From positions 5,395-69,394 of the forward strand of contig CASFUZ010000014.1 in the NCBI GenBank assembly GCA_949298065.1: a DNA stretch of 64,000 nucleotides, written 5' to 3'. Shown here piece after piece: positions 19,058-34,815 of the stretch. How positions within the stretch are numbered: position 1 is the first letter of the stretch; each line of letters starts with the position of its first letter. The translations under genes were made by a program, and so were the position numbers. The DNA comes from an uncultured Pseudomonadota bacterium. GTDB taxonomy: Bacteria > Pseudomonadota > Alphaproteobacteria > RF32 > CAG-239. Under the pieces are notes generated by a model, which had not been told where the DNA came from, made no database searches, and worked only from the letters and a program-made list of their open reading frames with translations.

Positions 19058-20182
19058 CTAATCATATTCTCCCCCGAAAATCCGCGGATAATTGGCAAAA
19101 CGCTGAAAATATCTTTCCACCAACTCATCTACAACAATATCAGGCTTAGTTTCATCCACAACAGCCTCAATTTCAGAAAGTTTCTTTAACCCTGCCGCCG
19201 CATAAAAAGAATACGCAAAGGTCTTGTTAACATAAGGCATCAACGCCTCTGCAAAAGAATCACTCCACATCAAAATCCTTTGCGGATATTTCTTATTGCT
19301 GGCCACACATTCCTTAACAGATTCTATTTTAGAATTAGCTTGACAGTTTACGGAAATATCCGGCAAATAATCAACCTGATAGGCAAACTCCCGAGCCCCT
19401 ACCTCCATATCCATATCTCGCAATTTTCCTTTAGCTATATTCATATCTCGCAAATCAGGAACGGATACTTTTACACCTAAACCAACCAAACCAGAAGCTA
19501 AAGCATCAAACCCGACATAAGCACCAATATTATTCCAGTGCGTATCTTTTTTGAAATACAGATTTTGCTCAACTTTTTCTTTGGCAGCCAATATCACAGG
19601 CTTCGCATTAACAATTTCAGCTTTAACATGCTTTTTCAAATATTCAACAGCCTTATCCATCCGCGAAATATCTGATTTTCTGATTCTCTGCATTCTTTCC
19701 GGCATAAATTCGGAATAAATATTTTCCTTATTCGGAGCCACAAAAATAACATATTTTATACCGCGTTTAGCATAGAAATCATATGCCATATTGATACCTT
19801 CAACCATTTTGGCCAAATCATCATCATCAAAATAAACTTCGGCATAATAGTCAACCAACGTATTTCCGTTGTTAGCCTTAATAGAATCATAAAAAATCCA
19901 ACCATCTTGACCATAAAAATACTGCCCCGTATCAATATTCAAACTACGCTGTAACTTAACATATTTTGAAATAATTTTTTTGCGTCCGGCAAAAGTATCA
20001 TTATAATAAGCTTCAAATTCTTTTGCAAAATTTCTGGTAAACTCCGTAGGCTTTTCATTAAGCGGACGATTATCCATAATTGCCGTATTTGTATAAAACA
20101 AATTAGCCGCAAACGGATAAAAAACCATCACTAACATCAAAACTGCCGGAAGCAACATATATAAGCGAACAAATCTTAACAT
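19058..20182 (-). CDS. AlgJ/AlgX-like (SGNH-like) polysaccharide O-acetylation protein, N-terminal membrane anchor
   Basis: Conserved VAPNKENIYSEF and KKDTHWNNIGAYVG motifs shared with the paralog at 30851-32176; adjacent to an MBOAT gene (AlgI/AlgJ-type pairing). Confidence 0.6.
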   Translation of the reverse strand: MLRFVRLYMLLPAVLMLVMVFYPFAANLFYTNTAIMDNRPLNEKPTEFTRNFAKEFEAYYNDTFAGRKKIISKYVKLQRSLNIDTGQYFYGQDGWIFYDSIKANNGNTLVDYYAEVYFDDDDLAKMVEGINMAYDFYAKRGIKYVIFVAPNKENIYSEFMPERMQRIRKSDISRMDKAVEYLKKHVKAEIVNAKPVILAAKEKVEQNLYFKKDTHWNNIGAYVGFDALASGLVGLGVKVSVPDLRDMNIAKGKLRDMDMEVGAREFAYQVDYLPDISVNCQANSKIESVKECVASNKKYPQRILMWSDSFAEALMPYVNKTFAYSFYAAAGLKKLSEIEAVVDETKPDIVVDELVERYFQRFANYPRIFGGEYD

Positions 20183-20184
20183 AA

Positions 20185-21588
20185 TCAGAACCTGAAATAA
20201 ATAAACGGATTATATGTATTGCTGGCCAATAACAAGATGCTGAAATATGCAATCACAGCACAAAATGCCGGATTAACAGCCTTGAGCAACACATTTCCCC
20301 AATTCTCATGTTTCAAAACAGCAAAAACTTTCTGGTAAAGCATTACACCAAAGCCACAAGAAACAAAAGCCAACACCGCAACATAAACAAACTCGTTAGA
20401 TAAATATTTGCTGTAAGATTCCATATCAAAAGGCACAAACATTCTGTTCAAATACCCCCATGCAGCACCCAAAGTTTCTGCACGGAAGAAGACCCAAGCC
20501 ACAATAACAATCAGCAACGTATAAATACTCTGCAGCAAGCGAAACCTCAAAAATTTTTCAATCGGAAAAATTCGCTCCAAGACCAAGAAACAGCCATGAA
20601 ACAACCCCCAAATCACAAAGTTCCAACTCGCGCCATGCCACAAACCTGTCAGGAAAAACACAATCATCAAATTCCGATAAGTTTTTAGCGTCCCTTCTCT
20701 GTTTCCGCCCAACGGAATATACAAATACTCCTTAAACCAAGTGGAAAGAGAAATATGCCACCGCCGCCAAAAATCTTTAATAGAAGTTGCGGTATAAGGA
20801 TAATTAAAGTTCTCATGAATCTGGAAGCCAAACATCTTCCCTAAACCGATTGCCATATCCGAATATCCTGAAAAATCAAAATAGATTTGGAACGTATAGG
20901 CAATAATGCCAATCCATGCGGCAGGTGTGCTCAAATCATTAAGCCCCAAAGCAAAAATCTCATCGGCAGTTTTGGCCATAATATTAGCGATAATAACCTT
21001 TTTAGCCAAGCCTTGTAAAAAACGAACAGCCCCCTCATTAAACAAAGGCAAAGTAACCTGTCGTTTATCAATCTGACTGGCTATATCATAATATTTCAAA
21101 ATCGGACCGGCAATCAACTGCGGGAAGAAAGAGATAAACAAGCCCATTTTGATAATATTTCTCTGCGGCTCGCAAACTTTGCGATAAATATCCACCAAAT
21201 AAGAAATAGATTGGAAAGTGTAAAAAGAAATACCAATCGGCAAAGGCAAATGCTTAACCTCGACCTGCAGACCAAAGATTGCATTCACATTTTCCGTAAA
21301 GAAACCGGTATATTTGAAAACACCCAATAAGGCTAAGTTTACAAACACAGCCCAAAACAATGCTCTTTTGCGTTTATGTTCTTCTGCCGCACCGATTTTC
21401 AAACCACAAAAATAGTTTATGATAATAGATAAAATCATCACAAAAACATAAACCGGCTCGCCCCAAGCATAAAAGAACAAACTCGCAACCAACAAAATCA
21501 CATTGCGATATTGCTCTTTAGCAAGAAAATATAACGTAAAAACAACAGGCAAAAACAGCCATAAAAATATTAAGGAACTAAAGACCAC
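20185..21588 (-). CDS. MBOAT-family membrane-bound O-acyltransferase (AlgI/DltB-like), paralog 1
   Basis: 467 aa, polytopic, conserved MBOAT His region (LWHGASWNFVIWG). Paralog of 29433-30839 (same N-terminus pattern, identical C-terminus NTYNPFIYFRF). Confidence 0.85.
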   Translation of the reverse strand: MVFSSLIFLWLFLPVVFTLYFLAKEQYRNVILLVASLFFYAWGEPVYVFVMILSIIINYFCGLKIGAAEEHKRKRALFWAVFVNLALLGVFKYTGFFTENVNAIFGLQVEVKHLPLPIGISFYTFQSISYLVDIYRKVCEPQRNIIKMGLFISFFPQLIAGPILKYYDIASQIDKRQVTLPLFNEGAVRFLQGLAKKVIIANIMAKTADEIFALGLNDLSTPAAWIGIIAYTFQIYFDFSGYSDMAIGLGKMFGFQIHENFNYPYTATSIKDFWRRWHISLSTWFKEYLYIPLGGNREGTLKTYRNLMIVFFLTGLWHGASWNFVIWGLFHGCFLVLERIFPIEKFLRFRLLQSIYTLLIVIVAWVFFRAETLGAAWGYLNRMFVPFDMESYSKYLSNEFVYVAVLAFVSCGFGVMLYQKVFAVLKHENWGNVLLKAVNPAFCAVIAYFSILLLASNTYNPFIYFRF

Positions 21589-25382: not shown

Positions 25383-25901
25383 TTATTTAGTAACTTCCCA
25401 ACTCTTGGAAAATTCCTCATCTTTAAACAAATTAGCCAACCCCGTAATTTGTTTTAAGCGCAACAACTCATCGGCTGACATTCCGATATTTCGGCAAATC
25501 CAAGAATCACTTTTCCCCATTTCCAAAAGCTCAGCCACAATATTACTCATCAAATCCACACTATGGCTGCCGCGTGCACGGTTATGCCTGATGGTTGAAG
25601 CCATTCTCTCCCCCAATTCTTTATCAATAACCACCACCGGCATTTTACCTTTTTCACGATTTCTGATTCTTTCACTGGTAAGCATTGTTGTAAAACGATG
25701 AAACCCATCCACGACAATATATTCGTCATTTGCCTTATCATAATAACAAACAATTGGCTGTGTAAAACCATCCTCCCAAATAGAAATTTCCAAAAGCTTC
25801 ATCTCCGGCGGAGCAACTTTGTTGGGGTTATAATCATTTGCTTTAATCTTTTCCAGAGGGATAGCTCTGACATTATAAACAGGACTGACAAATTCGCTCA
25901 T
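25383..25901 (-). CDS. ParB/Srx-like nuclease-domain protein (IbrB/YbdM-like)
   Basis: ParB N-domain pattern IPLEKIKANDYNPNKV...VVDGFHRFTT...HNRARG. GAGG RBS. Immediately downstream of the PAPS-reductase-like gene. Confidence 0.75.
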   Translation of the reverse strand: MSEFVSPVYNVRAIPLEKIKANDYNPNKVAPPEMKLLEISIWEDGFTQPIVCYYDKANDEYIVVDGFHRFTTMLTSERIRNREKGKMPVVVIDKELGERMASTIRHNRARGSHSVDLMSNIVAELLEMGKSDSWICRNIGMSADELLRLKQITGLANLFKDEEFSKSWEVTK

Positions 25902-25911
25902 TTACCCTACC

Positions 25912-27213
25912 TCATAAATTTTTATATTTTTCCATCAATGCCTTTTGTCTCAAATTTTGTTTTTGTGTTTGAGCAAAGCCCATATACTTACACAAATGAT
26001 CATTTTTCAATATACAAACAGCCATTCTTTTCCATGAGGGAATATCAATGGTAGATTTAATATCATCAGTATGATCCGGAGTTCCCAAAAACACAATTTT
26101 TTCTTTACTGCTTTTATAATTGCTCTTACCATTATGCCGAATAGGATAATTGCAAGCCTCCAATTCCTTAATAGCAGCATCGTCAACCACACCACCTTTT
26201 TTCCACCAAAACCTAATAGAGGTTTTAAACTTTTCAATATAATTTCGCCTCATTGAATCAGGTAAAGTTGCCAACAAAAACTTCACATAGCTACGCCAAG
26301 TATGCCCCGGCGGCAATTCAATCTTACGAGCACCCAAAGCATGAGAATTTCCATAAATTGCACCGAAATTTGCGCCCTGCACCCGAGACACGATGCGAAC
26401 CCATGTTGAGGGTTCCAAAACCCTATATAGATTAAGACTATCCTTGGCCGTTTCATGATAAGGACTGGCAACCCGCATCTGATGAATAGAAAGCCCTGCT
26501 TTCCAAAACAAATCATAAATCCGATTATAATCATAATCAAACTTACCATTGGCTATCCACACATCCTTTGTTGTCCAATCATACATTGGATAAGCGTTCC
26601 ACCAATTTTCCCCCATTTTCGTTGTCCACTGATTCCCTTTCAGAATAGTTTTACGGTCATTAGCATAAGCCCGATACCGATTAAGGGATTCATCGGCCCG
26701 AATACCGAGCAAACAAATTGTCTTCCCTTTCTTTTGTCTGGAATACCAATCACCAAACTCAGCATACAAATCTTCTTGTACCATTTTATAACGATAAAAA
26801 TCAAAAGGATTATTATCCATATTAATAATGTATGGCATTTTGGGCATAGGCCGCACCCACAAATTTTTCTGATCCGGATCCCAAGTATACCAATACATCT
26901 GATAATTACTAACTGCGCAACGAGACCCCATCGGCAAACAAACCCAATAAGGCTCAATATCGCTCATATTATTTTCAAACATTCTGGTAACAAAATCCGT
27001 TGTTGTCTGATATTGAGCCTCAAAATCCTGATGAAAAACACCAATTTTCTTGGTAATATTATTCCTTCGTTTGTAGCTCAAAACCATATTTAACAACAAA
27101 CCACTATCTTTGCCACCGGAAAAAGAAACATAAATATTATCAAAATTATCAAAAATAAATTTCAATCTTTCCTGCAAAGCCTCATAAACATTTTTTTCCA
27201 AATATTTCTTCAT
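25912..27213 (-). CDS. PAPS-reductase-like PP-loop ATP pyrophosphatase with C-terminal DUF3440-like region (IbrA/YbdN-like)
   Basis: PP-loop SFSGGKDSG. Start taken at MKKYLEK (ATG 27211-27213), preceded by a strong AGGAGG RBS. That ATG overlaps the upstream gene's TGA stop as ATGA. Confidence 0.8.
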   Translation of the reverse strand: MKKYLEKNVYEALQERLKFIFDNFDNIYVSFSGGKDSGLLLNMVLSYKRRNNITKKIGVFHQDFEAQYQTTTDFVTRMFENNMSDIEPYWVCLPMGSRCAVSNYQMYWYTWDPDQKNLWVRPMPKMPYIINMDNNPFDFYRYKMVQEDLYAEFGDWYSRQKKGKTICLLGIRADESLNRYRAYANDRKTILKGNQWTTKMGENWWNAYPMYDWTTKDVWIANGKFDYDYNRIYDLFWKAGLSIHQMRVASPYHETAKDSLNLYRVLEPSTWVRIVSRVQGANFGAIYGNSHALGARKIELPPGHTWRSYVKFLLATLPDSMRRNYIEKFKTSIRFWWKKGGVVDDAAIKELEACNYPIRHNGKSNYKSSKEKIVFLGTPDHTDDIKSTIDIPSWKRMAVCILKNDHLCKYMGFAQTQKQNLRQKALMEKYKNL

Positions 27214-28460
27214 AATGTCAAGGCCTCCTCCTTTGAAATCATACGACAAACATTAGACAAGACATTTCTTTTACGACTCAAATTTTGCCTGATAAGTTTA
27301 TCCAATCCCGTATTAATCCAAAGATTATAAACATTGATACTTTGTCCCGAATAAGACTGATATACATTATGCATACACTGCAACTTGCTTTTATAATCAA
27401 ATGTTTGAGAAAAATAAATAATATTATTGCAATTACACAAATCCAAACCTCTGGAATCCACCCCATAAGTAGAAAACATAATATTTATTCTTTGCCCAAA
27501 AAGCTTAACTGCTTTTTTCTTATTACTACGCCCGGACAAAATAACATACTTCCCTCTTTGGAGTAAACCACTTTCCACAAAAAAACTAATTTCATCAAGA
27601 TATTTAAGATATATAATAACTTTTTCATTACGCTCTAGAATTTCGTTAATTAAGCGAAACAAACCCTCTACCTTATTTTTAGCAAGAGTATAAATATGCT
27701 GAAAACGCTGCACGACCTCCATAAATACCACCTGCTCTTTATCTTGAAGAAAAGCATTTTTCTCTTCCTGATAACTATCCTCTTCTTTTTGTGTTAAATC
27801 AAAAAAAAGATCAATATAATTAAGATTAAAACGGTCTTCCAAATCACACTCAAAAATAAAAGGGCGCATTTGCTCAATCAAAATTTTTTCATTTTCCGGC
27901 TTTGACCATTTCCGAACTGTTCCATCATCATAAGGAGACAGATAAGTATTAAGAAACTGGCTCTCAGACATATTAAGCACAGAAGGATGCATAAACTCAA
28001 TCTGAGAATACAAATCTACCAACCCCTGTGTTAATGGCAAACTACTTAAAATCAGACGATAATCAAACATATTACGCATCAGCAGCAAACGCTTAGTCCG
28101 TCCGGCCTCAGTATTTTTGATTGTAATACTCTCATCTACCACACAAAAAACCCTGTATTTCTCAGCCAAAGAATAAAGCTGCAGATAATGCAAATCAGAA
28201 CAAGAAATATTTTCAATGGAAAAAAAATAAATTTCTTTTTTCAAGTCAATCAAATTTTCATCAATAATATCAGCATACCCCTTCCACGCTAAAAAAGAAG
28301 AAGGAGCAATCCACACCACAACATCTATCTCACCTTGTTTGTCTTTAACTAAATCCAGAGCCGCCTTAATCTTCTTGGAGCCCATCTTCATAAACAAAGC
28401 ACCCGCTTTAAGTCTTGATAATTTGGCGCTGGAAGATTCAAAATTGCAATCTTTATCCAT
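27210..28460 (-). CDS. minimal SNF2-family helicase-like protein with degenerate ATPase motifs (probable pseudo-ATPase)
   Basis: SNF2 motif Ia VVVWIAPSSFLAWKGY; motif II VFCVVDESITIKN (DExH-KN); motif III RLILSSLPLTQGLVDLYSQIEFMHPSVL; motifs IV-VI in the C-lobe (IMFSTYGVDSRGLDL...YQSYSGQSINVYNLW). Walker A replaced by KMGSKKI; Arg fingers missing. Confidence 0.7.
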   Translation of the reverse strand: MDKDCNFESSSAKLSRLKAGALFMKMGSKKIKAALDLVKDKQGEIDVVVWIAPSSFLAWKGYADIIDENLIDLKKEIYFFSIENISCSDLHYLQLYSLAEKYRVFCVVDESITIKNTEAGRTKRLLLMRNMFDYRLILSSLPLTQGLVDLYSQIEFMHPSVLNMSESQFLNTYLSPYDDGTVRKWSKPENEKILIEQMRPFIFECDLEDRFNLNYIDLFFDLTQKEEDSYQEEKNAFLQDKEQVVFMEVVQRFQHIYTLAKNKVEGLFRLINEILERNEKVIIYLKYLDEISFFVESGLLQRGKYVILSGRSNKKKAVKLFGQRINIMFSTYGVDSRGLDLCNCNNIIYFSQTFDYKSKLQCMHNVYQSYSGQSINVYNLWINTGLDKLIRQNLSRKRNVLSNVCRMISKEEALTL

Positions 28461-28463
28461 CTT

Positions 28464-28495
28464 TTATATCTGACTGAATTTATATCTGACTGAAT
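28464..28495. repeat. perfect tandem direct repeat 2 x 16 bp (ttatatctgactgaat) in the divergent promoter region
   Basis: Begins 4 bp upstream of the SNF2-like ATG; candidate operator/regulator site. Confidence 0.8.
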
Positions 28496-28697
28496 ATAGA
28501 ATATAAACAAAGTTTATTGTATATCAAGCCTTTCATATTTTCTAGCTGTAGCTTATATTTGTTAACAACTTACGCATTTTTACATGCATATATTTTTATC
28601 CCTTACAAAAAAACTGGATTTTTATAACAAAATCAATTATATATAGTAATATTATAACGGCAAGAGCCAAAAAAATTCATCAGGAGGAATTGGCCGA

Positions 28698-29297
28698 ATG
28701 ACTGATAACACCATTACTTGCACAAATTTTTATTCTTTGGAAGAAAACATTATCCATAACTTCACATCCAACAAAAAAGCTGAAATATTAGCACATACCC
28801 TAAAAGTTAAAGACAATGCGCTAGCCTTGGCTAAAAGATTTGTTATAGACTATGAACAAGCCAAAACGGCCGCACTTTTGCATGACATCAGCACACTTAT
28901 CCCTATTGAACATTATATTCCGATGGCAGAAGCTCTTGATTTAGAAATTTTTGCTGTAGAACGTGAAAACCCATATCTTCTTCATCAAAGAATATCTCGC
29001 ATTGTTGCGGTTGAAACATTTAATATTGTAGATAAAGAAGTTCTCAATGCCATCAACTGCCATACAACTCTGCGCAAAAATGCCACCAACTTAGATAAAC
29101 TTCTCTTCTTAGCCGACAAATTAAGTTGGGATAGCAAAGATACTCCGGCTTATATGCCTTTAGTAAAAAAAGCTGCAGAGGTTTCCTTAAATAATGCCAT
29201 CAAATGTTATTTTGAAAATCTGATGCTTAATAAAGATAAAATTAAAACCCCTCACCCTTGGCTTTTGGAAGCTTGGGAAGAAATTCATAACACATAG
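28698..29297 (+). CDS. HD-domain phosphohydrolase (YqeK-like)
   Basis: H...K...LLHDIS HD motif, further His/Asp residues (LLHQRIS, FLADKLS). Strong AGGAGG RBS. Divergent from the SNF2-like operon. Confidence 0.7.
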   Translation: MTDNTITCTNFYSLEENIIHNFTSNKKAEILAHTLKVKDNALALAKRFVIDYEQAKTAALLHDISTLIPIEHYIPMAEALDLEIFAVERENPYLLHQRISRIVAVETFNIVDKEVLNAINCHTTLRKNATNLDKLLFLADKLSWDSKDTPAYMPLVKKAAEVSLNNAIKCYFENLMLNKDKIKTPHPWLLEAWEEIHNT

Positions 29298-29338
29298 TCT
29301 CTTTCAAAATTCCGACAGCAATAACCAAATTTCCCATT

Positions 29339-29439
29339 CTTCTTCTGAAAATCACGATTAATGCGGAAAGTTGTAGGCACTTAGGATTTTGAAAATTTTA
29401 AACGCCCAAATTTCCCATTAAGCGTGATTTTCCTAGAAG
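29339..29439. repeat. imperfect about 24-bp inverted repeat with about 52-bp spacer, each arm preceded by direct repeat ccaaatttcccatt
   Basis: cttcttctgaaaatcacgattaatg versus reverse complement cttctaggaaaatcacgcttaatg; lies between convergent HD and MBOAT-2 genes (overlaps MBOAT-2 stop). Confidence 0.7.
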
Positions 29440-30839
29440 CGGAAATAAATAAACGGATTATACGTTGACGATGCAAGAGATATGGTAGACCAATAAAAAA
29501 GGATAAAAATCCAAATATTAATGATACTACGCAATACCTTATGCTCATATTTTACGTAAAGCATATTTTTAAATATCGGTGCAGAACAAATAATTCCCAA
29601 AACCAACATTAAAATAAACTTATTATTGATACCAAAATCTACTTCTGTCAGAACTTCCGGTTGATTTAGCATAAACATCTGTTGTAAATAATCCCAAGCA
29701 TAATCCATATTAATGGAGCGAAAAGCCACCAGTCCCAAAACAAAGACAAGCATCGCATAGACATGCCTCAATGCTGATATATACTTACTTTCATCTTTAG
29801 GCTTGTGCCAACCGACAAACTTTTCAAAACAAATAAAGATAGCGTTCCAAACACCCCATAATACGAATGTCCAACTTGCTCCATGCCAAACACCGGTAAC
29901 TAAAAAGACCACAAACAAATTGACATAAGTACGCACCGGCGAAACCCTGTTTCCGCCAAGGGGAATATATAAATATTGTTTAAACCACGTTGCCAAAGAG
30001 ATATGCCATCTCTGCCAAAACTCAGAAATAGATTTGGAAATATAGGGATAATTAAAGTTTTCTAAAAACCGAAAGCCAAACATCCGCCCCAAACCAATAG
30101 CCATATCCGAATATCCAGAGAAGTCAAAATAAAGCTGAATAGCATAAGCAATAATTCCGAGCCAAGCATAGCCAAAGCCCAAAGTTTCTGGCTGTTGCAT
30201 AAAGATTCTATCAACCACAACAGCCAAAGTATTAGCTATCAAAACTTTTTTAGCCAAGCCGATAATAAAGCGTTTTAAGCCAAAAGAAACATCGGCAAAA
30301 GTAACTTTTCTGTCATCAATTTGCTCGCAAACATCATGATACTTAACAATCGGTCCGGCAACAAGCTGCGGAAAAAGAACAATATAAAGAGCCAATTTGT
30401 TAATATCGTCCTGAGCCTCAACTTCCCGACGATAAACATCTATCAAATAAGATATGGCTTGAAAGGTATAAAAAGAAATACCAATCGGCATAACCACATC
30501 AATAAAGTCAAGATTAAGCTGTAAAACCGCATTAACATTATCAACGATAAAATTAAAATACTTAAAATAAACCAGGAAACCCAAATCAACCAAAATCGTA
30601 GCTGCCATCGCCAATTTGCGTTTTTTATCATCCAAACATCTATCTACGATTCTGGCCCCCACATAAGTAACAACGATTGTCATAATCATAATTGCCAAAT
30701 ATCTGGGCTCGCCCCAAGCATAAAAGATAATGCTCGCCGCTAACAAGACATAATTTCTGATATCTTTTTTAGAGAGCAAATAAATGCTCATCACCACCGG
30801 CATAAACACAAACAAAAATGTCATAGAACTAAAAAGCAT
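29433..30839 (-). CDS. MBOAT-family membrane-bound O-acyltransferase (AlgI/DltB-like), paralog 2
   Basis: 468 aa; conserved His region VWHGASWTFVLWG; same C-terminus as paralog 1. Confidence 0.85.
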   Translation of the reverse strand: MLFSSMTFLFVFMPVVMSIYLLSKKDIRNYVLLAASIIFYAWGEPRYLAIMIMTIVVTYVGARIVDRCLDDKKRKLAMAATILVDLGFLVYFKYFNFIVDNVNAVLQLNLDFIDVVMPIGISFYTFQAISYLIDVYRREVEAQDDINKLALYIVLFPQLVAGPIVKYHDVCEQIDDRKVTFADVSFGLKRFIIGLAKKVLIANTLAVVVDRIFMQQPETLGFGYAWLGIIAYAIQLYFDFSGYSDMAIGLGRMFGFRFLENFNYPYISKSISEFWQRWHISLATWFKQYLYIPLGGNRVSPVRTYVNLFVVFLVTGVWHGASWTFVLWGVWNAIFICFEKFVGWHKPKDESKYISALRHVYAMLVFVLGLVAFRSINMDYAWDYLQQMFMLNQPEVLTEVDFGINNKFILMLVLGIICSAPIFKNMLYVKYEHKVLRSIINIWIFILFYWSTISLASSTYNPFIYFRF

Positions 30840-30850
30840 TTATTTTTCCT

Positions 30851-32176
30851 TTACTCTTCCGGAGCCTCAATTTTCATCAGACGATTAAGAAAACGCTCGC
30901 CGGTTGCAATAACCAACATATTTGGCGCAAAATTTTCAATATCTTCAGCCATATAGGGAATATCAAAATTTTTTCCATAACCGACATAAATATGCTGCAT
31001 TTCTTTAAAGCTTTCAGCCACATACCAATTCATCCGCAAGAACTGGCTATCTGCGTAAAAAATGGCCTTCAGTTTATTTGCGGGATTATCACTCACAAAG
31101 TCAAAAGTCTCAATCCGCAACTTTTTGTTTACGAACTCATGTTTTACAGCCGTCGTTTGCCTTTTTAAAGAAAAGACATCATAAGTCATATCTTCTTTAG
31201 GGAAGGTTGTTTTTGCATCAATTCCCAAAGCATTGGCAATATCCTCATCGGCACTAAACTGCGGTTCTATATTAAAATCAGCTTCTTTTAAAATCTTAAG
31301 CGACGGAAAATCTTTTTTAAGCATCTTCATCATCTCAAGATATGCAACATAAGCCCCACGATGGTTCCAATGTGTTCCTGTTTTATAATAAAGCAAATGG
31401 TCTTTTTTAGCCTTTTCCAAAGCCTTAATTGGATAAACCACCGGAATATCCGTCTCATTTTTCAAAAATTCATAAGCTTGTTCAATTTTAGCTTGTTCAT
31501 TGACTTTGACATAGCCATCGGGATAAAATTCACCATAAACACGTTCTTTATCCGGCACCAACATCAAATAGAGTTTAATATTTCTTTTTGCCAACCAAGA
31601 CTGCAGATTTTCCAAACGATATTTAATTTTAGAAAGTTCCTCATCATCAAACAAATACTTGTTACGGAACATATCTTCGGAGTTCCACCTTTTGGTAAAC
31701 AACCAATTTTCTTTGCCGGCCATGGCATCAAAATTCTTCAACTCATTATTAATTAGCAAATCAATCATCTTGCTGTTTTTAATAAACTGACGCCGACCAA
31801 AGAAACGATCATTAAACCAGTTTTCAAAATCCTTACCAAAATTATAATTTACTAACCCTGTTTCATCATCAATAAGCGGCACATATTTAGCCAAAGACCT
31901 ATTTTCCTGTACCGAAATTTCATCACGGTTAATATGCAAAATCGGCACAAACATAAAAGCCACAACACAAACCACAAAAACAATATCTATACGCGAATTA
32001 TTTTCAACAATCTTAAAACGCGCCAAATATTGCACCAACTTATAGCAAATCATATAAGAAAGTGTGATGATGATGATAAAAAGTTTATAATCAAAACCGA
32101 CATCTGTCAGATAAAGCCGATGTCCCCACAAGGTAAGCAACAGCGTCAGGATAATACTTATAATTAAACGTCGCAT
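30851..32176 (-). CDS. AlgJ/AlgX-like polysaccharide O-acetylation protein, paralog 2
   Basis: N-terminal TM helices; shares LVPDKERVYGEF and YKTGTHWNHRGAYVAY motifs with 19058-20182. Confidence 0.6.
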   Translation of the reverse strand: MRRLIISIILTLLLTLWGHRLYLTDVGFDYKLFIIIITLSYMICYKLVQYLARFKIVENNSRIDIVFVVCVVAFMFVPILHINRDEISVQENRSLAKYVPLIDDETGLVNYNFGKDFENWFNDRFFGRRQFIKNSKMIDLLINNELKNFDAMAGKENWLFTKRWNSEDMFRNKYLFDDEELSKIKYRLENLQSWLAKRNIKLYLMLVPDKERVYGEFYPDGYVKVNEQAKIEQAYEFLKNETDIPVVYPIKALEKAKKDHLLYYKTGTHWNHRGAYVAYLEMMKMLKKDFPSLKILKEADFNIEPQFSADEDIANALGIDAKTTFPKEDMTYDVFSLKRQTTAVKHEFVNKKLRIETFDFVSDNPANKLKAIFYADSQFLRMNWYVAESFKEMQHIYVGYGKNFDIPYMAEDIENFAPNMLVIATGERFLNRLMKIEAPEE

Positions 32177-33216: not shown

Positions 33217-34815
33217 TCATAAAAAGTGTGTTTCTTTTATTGTTCTTTCAAGAGCTTTTTCTAAAGAAAACTTTGGATTATATCCCAATAATTTTTTAGC
33301 TTTAGATATATTTGCCACCTTTCTTTTAACATGAACCGCACTGGAGGACAAAAACTCTACTTCAATTTTCTTATCCAAAATTTTTTCCAAAAGCTTAAGC
33401 AATTTTCCAAGACAAACGGCTTTACCACTCGCTAAATTGAAGACATCAAATTTTTTCGGATATTTCCAAGCTTTTTCTATACCATCAACAACATCATCAA
33501 TATAAACAAAATCTCTTTTATCTTTTTCGCCATAATGTAGCTGAACTTTTGTATGATTTCGTACCGAATTTAATAAATTTCCGATAACACCGTCCGAAAA
33601 TTGCCCTGGTCCGAACACATTAAAAAAGCGCAGGCAAATTGCCGATAAACCATATAACTTGGTATAAGTATATATTAATGTTTCAGCAGCAGATTTAACG
33701 GCACCTTCCAAAGAGCACGGTCTTGAAGCACTACATTTTTCACTAAAAGTCCAACGTTTATCTTTGCCGTACACAGCTGCCGATGATCCCAAAATCAACT
33801 TTTTAGCCTTAAACTTCCGCATATTTTCCAAAACATTAAATATGCCCTCAAGTTCTTCTTTAACATCTGTTGTTTTTTGCGTAGCTCTCACCTTTTCTTG
33901 AAAATAAAAAACAACATCCGGCTTATTTTCTAAAAAAACTTTTTCCAAAAACTCATTATTAAAAACATTTCCTTGATAAAACTTATAATTTTTATTGCTT
34001 TCGTTTTGGGCAAGATTTTGTTTTTTCAAACCGGCATCAAAAACACCATCAAAATCATCAATAACCACAACCCTTGAATTTAACTGCAACATTCTTTCTG
34101 TGACGGCAGCACCAACAAAACCACAACCGCCGACAATCAAAACTTTTGGATTATGCGGATAAATAGCAAAATCAGGAGATGGACAACGAGCATTTTTTAC
34201 AAAAAGATTCTTTACATCATAACCATTTTTCCAAAGTACATAAGTAAAACTCAGCTGATCTCTTTTACTAAAATCTCTAACAAAGCTCCACCACATATCC
34301 ATAGTTTTCATAATTTCGGGTTTAAGATGTTTCCGATAAAGAACATTTGTTTCAGCGAGCCCCCATTTTTTAGGAAATCCGTCATCTTCAAGCAATTTTT
34401 CTTGGTGTCTGATAACATCAACATCATCATACCCAAGCTTTTCAACTTCTGCAAATTCATCATAAATACAATCTCGGCAAAAATGTACCGGCACTAAAAT
34501 ATCCGTTTTTCTTTTTAAAATTTGTTCAAAAATATACGAGCTTAAAATATTGACATTACTATCACACCATATACTCTGCTCATATTCAGGAAAAAGCTTG
34601 TGTGGATTAATTTTATGATAACGACTATTTCTGGTATTATCTCTTTCTTGAAAAGCCAGTGGTCTTATTTTCCAAACACCAACATTTTTTTGAGCCACCA
34701 AATTTTCATCATCGGTAAAACACACATAATCCCAATTTTCATCAACATACACAGGCTGTCTAAGTGTATCATAATTACCGGTTAAACAAGTATAAACAAC
34801 CCCAAGCTGAACCAT
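33217..34815 (-). CDS. two-domain protein: N-terminal putative glycosyltransferase-like domain (DUF616/TOD1-like; uncertain) fused to C-terminal NAD-dependent epimerase/dehydratase (extended SDR)
   Basis: N-terminus VYTCLTGNYD...CFTDD. From about residue 230, Rossmann motif VLIVGGCGFVGAAV and catalytic YxxxK-like AAVYGKDK/YTYTKLYG. Confidence 0.65.
   Translation of the reverse strand: MVQLGVVYTCLTGNYDTLRQPVYVDENWDYVCFTDDENLVAQKNVGVWKIRPLAFQERDNTRNSRYHKINPHKLFPEYEQSIWCDSNVNILSSYIFEQILKRKTDILVPVHFCRDCIYDEFAEVEKLGYDDVDVIRHQEKLLEDDGFPKKWGLAETNVLYRKHLKPEIMKTMDMWWSFVRDFSKRDQLSFTYVLWKNGYDVKNLFVKNARCPSPDFAIYPHNPKVLIVGGCGFVGAAVTERMLQLNSRVVVIDDFDGVFDAGLKKQNLAQNESNKNYKFYQGNVFNNEFLEKVFLENKPDVVFYFQEKVRATQKTTDVKEELEGIFNVLENMRKFKAKKLILGSSAAVYGKDKRWTFSEKCSASRPCSLEGAVKSAAETLIYTYTKLYGLSAICLRFFNVFGPGQFSDGVIGNLLNSVRNHTKVQLHYGEKDKRDFVYIDDVVDGIEKAWKYPKKFDVFNLASGKAVCLGKLLKLLEKILDKKIEVEFLSSSAVHVKRKVANISKAKKLLGYNPKFSLEKALERTIKETHFL

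Follow-up and report, generated by a model that had tools for sequence, protein, structure and literature searches.

A phage-type SNF2, IbrA and IbrB cassette kept with a degenerate SNF2 motor on the chromosome of gut Alphaproteobacteria

A stretch of 64,000 nucleotides from contig CASFUZ010000014.1 of an uncultured alphaproteobacterium, here called the window, carries three closely packed minus-strand genes whose products belong to the SNF2, IbrA/YbdN and IbrB/YbdM families. A first-pass annotation made from the sequence alone took this triad, together with a neighbouring HD-domain gene, for a candidate DNA-modification or anti-phage module on a laterally acquired insert. Is it such an island, and what might its products do? 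Our analysis showed that the triad is a chromosomal copy of a widespread phage cassette, whose motor has lost its ATPase residues yet is retained by selection, and not a freshly acquired defence island. With moderate confidence we regard it as a module of phage origin for the modification of nucleic acid, probably DNA, or for regulation, which has been domesticated with a pseudo-SNF2 scaffold.

The first gene of the triad (27210–28460, minus strand) encodes a 416-aa SNF2-family protein that has both RecA-like lobes and is a minimal stand-alone core with degenerate ATPase motifs. The second (25912–27213, minus strand) encodes IbrA, 433 aa from its ATG, in which a PP-loop domain of the PAPS-reductase family is followed by DUF3440. 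The third (25383–25901, minus strand) encodes IbrB, 172 aa, with an N-terminal ParB/Srx domain and a C-terminal helix-turn-helix (HTH)-like segment. An ATGA overlap joins the stop codon of SNF2 to the start codon of IbrA, and the IbrB start lies 11 nt past the IbrA stop. The HD gene (28698–29297, plus strand, 199 aa, YqeK family) is transcribed divergently. All four open reading frames (ORFs) had been placed at these coordinates by the first-pass annotation, and the ATGA overlap had been pointed out as well; both agree with our reading. The Shine-Dalgarno (SD) sequences that it ascribed to each gene were found as AGGAGG upstream of IbrA, GAGG upstream of IbrB and also AGGAGG upstream of the HD gene, but no good one was found upstream of the SNF2 gene (upstream letters ..cagatataaaagATG).

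The SNF2 protein belongs to a family of short stand-alone proteins of about 390–480 aa, for which we obtained 246 close matches and 236 representatives of 50% clusters at E<=1e-30. A genome scan with one genome per GTDB species gave 80 loci. The SNF2 gene was flanked directly by IbrA and IbrB homologues in 76 of them, and the other four were cut by contig ends. A viral scan of IMG/VR gave 411 contigs with a relative; the best 80 of these 411 were examined, and IbrA and/or IbrB was adjacent to SNF2 in 79, the remaining one being truncated at a contig end. The order of the genes varies (SNF2-IbrA-IbrB, SNF2-IbrB-IbrA or IbrA-IbrB-SNF2) and the membership is constant. The triad is thus a coupled unit, as had been suspected from its packing in the window. 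The cassette was found in the Lactobacillus phages CR28 and phiAQ113, in the Streptococcus equinus phage Pika and its relatives, in CHPC1230, D4276 and other S. thermophilus phages, in the Listeria phage LM 4-14-1, and in about 90 Flavobacterium columnare phages including FCL-2. Dedicated PHROG families exist for all three cassette proteins. In FCL-2 and in Bacteroidota prophages the cassette lies between the gene for the large terminase (terL) and the portal gene, and in Firmicutes phages between the lysis and the early genes. These results show that SNF2, IbrA and IbrB form one conserved cassette, whose ancestral home is the genomes of tailed phages and prophages. FCL-2 has been reported to lack an integrase, a repressor and lysogeny altogether (PMC4541368). 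A home in phages, including one reported as strictly lytic, points to a function on behalf of the phage, be it DNA modification, counter-defence or regulation, and not to an anti-phage system.

Most phage cassettes open with one or two conserved small proteins of 85–130 aa (phrog_5809 and phrog_27058 types), examples of which are encoded at L008:7751-8017, L012:3825-4148, L011:4353-4751, L044:494-745 and L071:5669-6004 (L numbers denote the loci compared here). They share a C-terminal H.P..I.P..N..I.eLK-like motif. Pfam gave nothing for these small accessory proteins, nor for the c41, c70 and c94 inserts. Our comparison of loci shows that, in a large subfamily of phages, the minimal SNF2 motor and these small proteins come as obligate partners. 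Some cassettes carry an extra protein of about 210 aa (L059:4704-5330, L088:8077-8718, L091:9740-10405) with a DPPC motif and a C-terminal DLCMGxGxxG motif; it recalls a permuted DNA methyltransferase and has no Pfam or PHROG match. We also took 150 representatives of the neighbouring genes in the remaining genome and viral loci and listed the 25 families that occur most often. DNA methyltransferases, integrases, terminase subunits and endolysins are the commonest neighbours, along with repressors and further ParB-like proteins; portal genes were also seen, and a TET-associated glycosyltransferase and an amidoligase occurred once each. Cysteine desulfurase, DndD/E, SspB/C and a restriction module were not among the 25 most frequent families listed.

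The window protein of 416 aa is an SNF2 protein by several measures. It matched Pfam SNF2-rel_dom with 29.6 bits (cut-off 24.9), Helicase_C with 21.9 bits, just under the cut-off of 23.5, and PHROG_62 with 131 bits. In the PDB, phmmer matched it to Mot1 (2e-8), SsoRad54 (9e-8) and also Ino80. The top match in both structure and sequence is 1z63, which covers aa 102–404 in the phmmer alignment. Its AlphaFold2 (AF2) model has a mean predicted local distance difference test score (pLDDT) of 78, and the top Foldseek neighbours are all SWI2/SNF2 cores, including Mot1, RapA and Rad26/CSB. The SNF2 fold is confirmed by the PDB sequence matches together with this predicted model, and the possibility that the protein is unrelated to SNF2, which had been named as a way to overturn the first-pass annotation, can be dropped.

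Its ATPase motifs are another matter. In the window, motif I reads GSKKI instead of GxGKT, motif III reads SSLP instead of NGTP, and motif VI (HNVYQSYSGQ) is free of arginine; motif II is kept as DES. The core had been called inactive-looking, and these motifs bear that out: neither a Walker A of the form GxGK[ST] nor the arginine fingers of motif VI are present, and only the DExx of motif II is. The loss is not peculiar to the window. All 41 SNF2 copies of the clade of gut Alphaproteobacteria to which the window belongs lack G.GK[ST], NG[TEQ]P and the motif VI arginines, and all 41 keep DESxTIKN. The full ATPase motif set is kept in 76 of the 80 viral copies and in essentially all of the 52 other copies. 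With Walker A and motifs III and VI degenerate, the clade SNF2 proteins should bind but not translocate, and the window protein is predicted from its motifs to be an ATPase-dead DNA-binding or scaffold subunit.

The ratio of nonsynonymous to synonymous substitution rates (dN/dS), taken pairwise within the clade, is 0.02–0.10 for SNF2, 0.005–0.06 for IbrA and 0.007–0.05 for IbrB. All three genes are thus under strong purifying selection in the clade and are not decaying. Where IbrA is 70–80% identical, the identity of SNF2 is 0.51 inside the clade vs 0.69 outside it, so SNF2 has evolved faster relative to IbrA. ATPase loss, low dN/dS and faster evolution are together the pattern expected of a pseudo-enzyme that is retained for a non-catalytic role.

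The closest loci to that of the window are in metagenome-assembled genomes (MAGs) of uncultured gut Alphaproteobacteria (Ca. Scatocola / CAG:495-like). Identical IbrA proteins occur in NCBI MAGs, and one IbrA variant of the clade is present on at least 1000 contigs. At least 33 species-level genomes from the clade carry the cassette; related species have it at the locus seen in the window, and it was also found at other ordinary sites of the chromosome. At least six such non-phage contexts could be told apart, for example flgI/mnmA and the MBOAT-HD/CitMHS-rml context seen in the window. This distribution does not agree with a recent acquisition of defence cargo in a hotspot; laterally acquired cargo of that kind had been proposed for the locus. 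The small upstream genes are missing from all 41 clade copies, and no remnant of them was found in the window. The dead type of SNF2 was not found on any viral contig of IMG/VR, where the best identity is 48%. The nearest relative with intact ATPase motifs, also at 48% identity, is in a prophage (L008, 1-17227). GapR is a nucleoid protein of Alphaproteobacteria; since this prophage encodes GapR, it probably infects Alphaproteobacteria, and capture of the cassette from a phage like it is compatible with our findings. Besides GapR, the same prophage encodes an N6/N4 DNA methyltransferase, a DUF4942 protein and a Tad2-like protein, an early region rich in DNA-modification and anti-defence genes.

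Base composition gave little sign of an insert. Against the 61 ORFs of the window (mean GC 0.408, standard deviation 0.035), GC was 0.397 for IbrB (z -0.3), 0.366 for IbrA (z -1.2), 0.335 for SNF2 (z -2.1) and 0.352 for the HD gene (z -1.6). The least constrained gene of the triad, SNF2, has the lowest GC. The adjacent MBOAT, AlgX and TOD1-epimerase fusion genes, out to 34.8 kb, are equally AT-rich (GC 0.33–0.36). Scans against Rfam and for tRNAs and repeats gave neither an RNA element nor a tRNA at the cassette, and no att-like repeats that flank it. The conspicuously AT-rich insert of the first-pass annotation is therefore a weak signal, modest and non-specific, because the neighbours are just as AT-rich and neither tRNA nor att-like repeats flank the cassette.

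IbrA matched Pfam DUF3440 with 261 bits (7e-78, cut-off 25) and PAPS_reduct with 35.1 bits (1.7e-8, cut-off 22.5), and PHROG_2302 with 363 bits. Over its full length it is 32% identical to E. coli YbdN (8e-70). IbrA is therefore a member of the IbrA/YbdN family on both counts, that is, by two domains above their cut-offs and by homology to YbdN with an IbrB/YbdM-type neighbour. The PP-loop motifs SGGKDS (FSGGKDS in the window) and GIRxDES are intact, and the protein has a conserved tail, KRMxxCILKNDxxCKYMGF. Across 77 IbrA sequences, SGGKDS, D63, E65, R172, E175, S176 and R179 are invariant. A complete PP-loop signature in 77/77 sequences argues for real ATP-pyrophosphatase chemistry. By weak profile matches, the nearest PP-loop relatives are DndC and BrxP, which act on DNA. 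A PDB sequence search found no solved relative of IbrA, and further protein searches gave almost only homologues at least 89% identical. In the homologues P0241, P0242 and P0244, which are 494–535 aa long, some 100 residues around the YPxYDW region are duplicated internally; the duplications may be assembly artefacts or real repeats.

IbrB has 62–78% identity across phyla and phages. It scored 23.8 bits (4.5e-5) against Pfam ParB_N, slightly under the cut-off of 26.3, and 264 bits against PHROG_2159; the domain calls made at first were otherwise borne out by our Pfam, NCBIfam and PHROG scans. Its 49% identity to E. coli YbdM over 164 aa (2e-52) makes it a YbdM homologue, and its PDB matches, Spo0J and Noc, are weak. 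The ParB/Srx domain carries the motifs ANxYNPN, DGFHR and RHNRARGxH; DGFHR, RHNRARGxH and the HTH-like tail are conserved.

The HD gene had been counted as part of the module. Its product scored 83.4 bits against TIGR00488 (YqeK, Ap4A hydrolase), above the cut-off of 70.15, which places it in that family; it matched Pfam HD with 36.2 bits, carries an LLHD motif and is a putative Ap4A (diadenosine tetraphosphate) hydrolase of the YqeK family. It adjoins the triad only in the closest relatives of the window (L001-4 and L013-18, a Ca. Scatocola-like subclade). Some 150 other cassette loci do not have it, and PHROG gave no match; this gene is an unrelated neighbour and not a component of the cassette.

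These observations lead to the following picture of the favoured modification or regulatory module. IbrB would bind DNA through its HTH segment and its nucleotide-binding ParB/Srx domain and recruit IbrA. With ATP, IbrA would then adenylate a group on the nucleic acid, which is most likely DNA, and this activation for substitution would leave a covalent mark. In phages, the SNF2 motor may translocate along the duplex or open it, so that the mark would be spread over the phage genome, where it could protect the genome from host restriction or alter its expression. In the window bacterium the complex would work without translocation, with the pseudo-SNF2 as a DNA-binding or assembly scaffold. 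DndH, in which an inactive SNF2 lobe serves to bind DNA, offers a precedent (PMC10853773). The module of the window would probably be a local epigenetic or regulatory device on the host chromosome. We also offer, as a tentative idea, a more specific proposal. The cassette of small protein, SNF2, IbrA and IbrB may install a new covalent DNA modification by PP-loop adenylation, which would be neither methylation, phosphorothioation nor 7-deazaguanine. It would serve hundreds of phages and many plasmids against restriction or silencing, and gut Alphaproteobacteria would have captured it as a host epigenetic or regulatory system with a pseudo-SNF2.

Several points weigh against this picture. IbrAB pairs without SNF2 were found in E. 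coli K-12 (citR-ybdN-ybdM; L173 4748-6570), on 763 plasmids and in mycobacteriophages; as such pairs are common, the SNF2 partner is optional for the core activity. The E. coli IbrAB proteins are reportedly genetic activators of the prophage eib genes, on genetic evidence alone, and a local regulatory role in the window would fit with that. DNA, RNA and a small molecule are all candidate substrates of IbrA. The AF2 model of IbrA, made from an alignment of 11 sequences, has a pLDDT of 49, too low for a reading of DUF3440. Conserved cysteines of IbrA were considered as a sign of sulfur transfer and rejected, since none is invariant in the 77 sequences (C92 in 70/77, C400 in 67/77, C408 in 70/77). 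No Fe-S signature was found in IbrA either. Without an invariant cysteine, an Fe-S signature or a cysteine desulfurase in the window or among the 25 neighbour families listed, phosphorothioation-like chemistry is not supported. Among the plasmids, an IncFIB/IncHI1B plasmid of Klebsiella (NZ_CP072654.1; L174 7784-9645) has an IbrAB-like pair between its fec and iro loci. A plasmid leading-region (anti-defence) context was also considered; this single Klebsiella locus, the only one inspected, was uninformative in that respect.

Other explanations have to be set against the same evidence. The triad, with or without the HD hydrolase, could be an anti-phage defence of the modification or restriction type, like Dnd, Ssp, BREX type 4, Dpd or DISARM. 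PP-loop, ParB-like and SNF2 parts do recur in Dnd, Ssp, Dpd and DISARM, prophages frequently carry defence genes, and PADLOC gave weak matches to ZorD (5e-12, 42.7 bits, covering only the helicase part 565–884 of 908 and not the Mrr domain), BrxP (17 bits, aa 5–44), DpdE (at most 22 bits), DrmD (13.5 bits) and DndC. However, PADLOC was blank for IbrB, its matches for IbrA and SNF2 are partial and at the level of domains, and neither the window nor about 160 loci show a nuclease or another effector linked to the cassette. Carriage by a phage reported as non-lysogenic, the terL-portal position in Bacteroidota phages, vertical retention in the clade at ordinary loci and not in defence islands, the dead motor of the window and the HD gene that is unlinked outside one subclade all speak against defence as well, and we consider it unlikely. 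Somewhat less so is a non-covalent regulator of transcription or chromatin, in which IbrB binds DNA, SNF2 remodels or displaces nucleoid proteins or RNA polymerase in the manner of RapA or Mot1, and IbrA is nucleotide-sensing or accessory. Mot1, RapA and Rad26/CSB among the structural neighbours of the modelled SNF2 core would agree with this, as would the control of E. coli ybdNM by a dedicated LysR repressor (PMC9068703). Yet the PP-loop catalytic signature is invariant in 77/77 IbrA sequences, and a remodeller without ATP hydrolysis could not remodel, although SNF2 has been retained under selection. A regulator of this kind therefore seems rather doubtful, but it can be reconciled with the modification module if modification is the way in which expression is changed.

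It is distinctly unlikely that IbrA modifies RNA, by tRNA thiolation or a lysidine-like reaction (cf. TtcA, TilS and MnmA), with IbrB and SNF2 as RNA or DNA tethers. The weak NCBIfam matches to TtcA, TilS and LarE that suggest it span only the generic PP-loop (aa 2–78). The cassette does adjoin mnmA in one subclade, but this adjacency is convergent and is confined to one synteny group. The ParB/Srx-HTH and SNF2 families are directed to DNA, and the phage cassettes lie beside packaging genes and DNA methyltransferases. That IbrA is an ordinary CysH PAPS reductase or a viral auxiliary metabolic gene (AMG), or that the cassette is a functionless, decaying prophage remnant, is highly improbable. 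The PAPS_reduct match of IbrA could be taken for the former, and in phage papers such genes are routinely classed as sulfur AMGs (PMC10434257). However, the ECGLH catalytic motif of CysH is not found in the IbrA sequence, whose C-terminus is in its place DUF3440, ending ..CILKNDHLCKYMGF.., and IbrA is obligately paired with a ParB-like IbrB. There are also no cys genes near the cassette in the window, where a sulfate-assimilation context had been named as a point to check; a C-terminal ECG[LI]H and that context, the two marks of CysH, are thus both absent. The decayed SNF2 motifs would suit a remnant, but a functionless one is refuted by dN/dS of 0.02–0.10 or lower for all three genes in many species.

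The modification or regulatory module that we favour has wider relevance. IbrA and IbrB are known families, and the adjacency of SNF2, IbrA and IbrB is visible in phage annotations. We found no description of the triad as a system, of its mechanism or of an ATPase-dead chromosomal form in the literature searched; PADLOC gave no system-level match, and the view that this combination is not a described system thus still stands. IbrA and IbrB are among the commoner "annotated but not understood" pairs of phages, plasmids and enterobacterial chromosomes, and viromics routinely mislabels them as sulfur-metabolism AMGs or partition proteins. Together with the obligate partners in phages and the unity of the cassette, a bacterial lineage that has kept it long after inactivation of its motor gives a concrete, testable handle on IbrAB function, the dead-motor cassette being a natural separation-of-function mutant. 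If true, a new DNA mark would matter for modification-aware sequencing, for phage-host conflict and for the ways in which restriction is evaded in the gut microbiome.

The divergent intergenic region between the SNF2 and HD genes (28461–28697, 237 bp) is AT-rich and is the presumed site of the operon promoter. Alignment with orthologous regions revealed two sequence blocks that are conserved among close relatives. Promoter-like hexamers were found on the minus strand at 28663–28636 and 28527–28500, with no enrichment over shuffles. Directly upstream of the SNF2 start codon, at the position expected for an SD sequence, lies a perfect 16-nt tandem duplication (28463–28494, TTTATATCTGACTGAA twice). 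In the alignment, five related genomes do not have it in their orthologous intergenic regions, and it is thus specific to the window. We had considered this repeat as an operator, which was rejected because the orthologous regions do not have it.

The genes that flank the cassette are rml genes, a CitMHS permease, nagA/nagB, a hydrolase and two MBOAT+AlgX pairs, in agreement with the earlier description of paralogous pairs around the locus. The MBOAT and AlgX/SGNH pairs, at 19058–21588 and 29433–32176, lie on either side of a segment with the rml genes, the permease and the cassette; the MBOATs are 46% identical, and each pair is probably a polysaccharide O-acylation system of its own. The HD and MBOAT genes are convergent, and between them there is a 22-nt inverted repeat (29347–29432, 86% complementary, 42-nt loop), which is probably a bidirectional terminator, and a 14-nt direct repeat occurs at 29325 and 29406. 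Further on, the gene at 33217–34815 (minus strand) encodes a TOD1/MUCI70 glycosyltransferase-like domain fused with an NAD-dependent epimerase/dehydratase. Its GC at third codon positions (GC3), 0.237, is the lowest in the window. In the relatives L001 and L003 the TOD1 domain is encoded by a separate gene of 235 aa.

Finally, we compared the triad with known systems. DndB and DndC of DndABCDE, SspB and SspD, and BrxP of BREX type 4 resemble it in that a ParB-superfamily protein is combined with a PAPS-reductase-like PP-loop enzyme acting on DNA. Dnd and Ssp also involve a further ATPase (DndD or SspC), and DndH has an inactive SNF2 lobe (PMC10853773). However, the window IbrA scored only 20.3 bits against TIGR03183 (cut-off 290) and 23.9 bits over about 100 aa against DndC of PADLOC, DUF3440 is specific to IbrA, and the window has no cysteine desulfurase, DndD/E or restriction partner. 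The marks of Dnd/Ssp phosphorothioation are thus absent in family score, in cysteine or Fe-S signature and in linked partners, the neighbours in the window being rml, CitMHS, MBOAT, AlgX, hydrolase and nag genes. Dpd is similar in that a ParB-like ATPase (DpdB) occurs with a base-modifying enzyme and SNF2-type DpdE/DpdJ are present in the cluster. It differs in that the window has no TGT/DpdA, DpdC or QueC-type gene, and the DpdE matches cover about 70–100 residues of the helicase core. PglZ, DpdA, DrmA/B and ZorA/B were not found in the annotated neighbourhood in the window, which sets the triad apart from BREX type 4, Dpd, DISARM and Zorya.

SsoRad54-like cores and pseudo-ATPase derivatives of helicases share the two-lobe SNF2 fold of about 400–470 aa without accessory domains, and the clade copies differ from them by the degenerate Walker A, III and VI motifs. 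The phage cassettes of CR28/phiAQ113, Pika/CHPC1230/D4276, FCL-2 and IMG/VR consist of the same adjacent families, mostly in the same order, with identities to the window of 28–48% for SNF2, 27–50% for IbrA and 49–78% for IbrB. They have kept GxGKT, NGTP and RxxRxGQ and the small genes upstream, whereas the window has lost both and its triad is surrounded by genes for housekeeping and polysaccharides. E. coli IbrA/IbrB (ECOR-9 island) and YbdN/YbdM (K-12 citR-ybdNM) are, as in the window, the same two families, adjacent and translationally coupled, and in both cases chromosomal copies of a pair that is otherwise found on mobile elements. The K-12 pair has no SNF2 and is accompanied by a LysR repressor instead, whereas in the window the pair is joined through the ATGA overlap to a minimal SNF2 protein that is predicted to be ATPase-dead.

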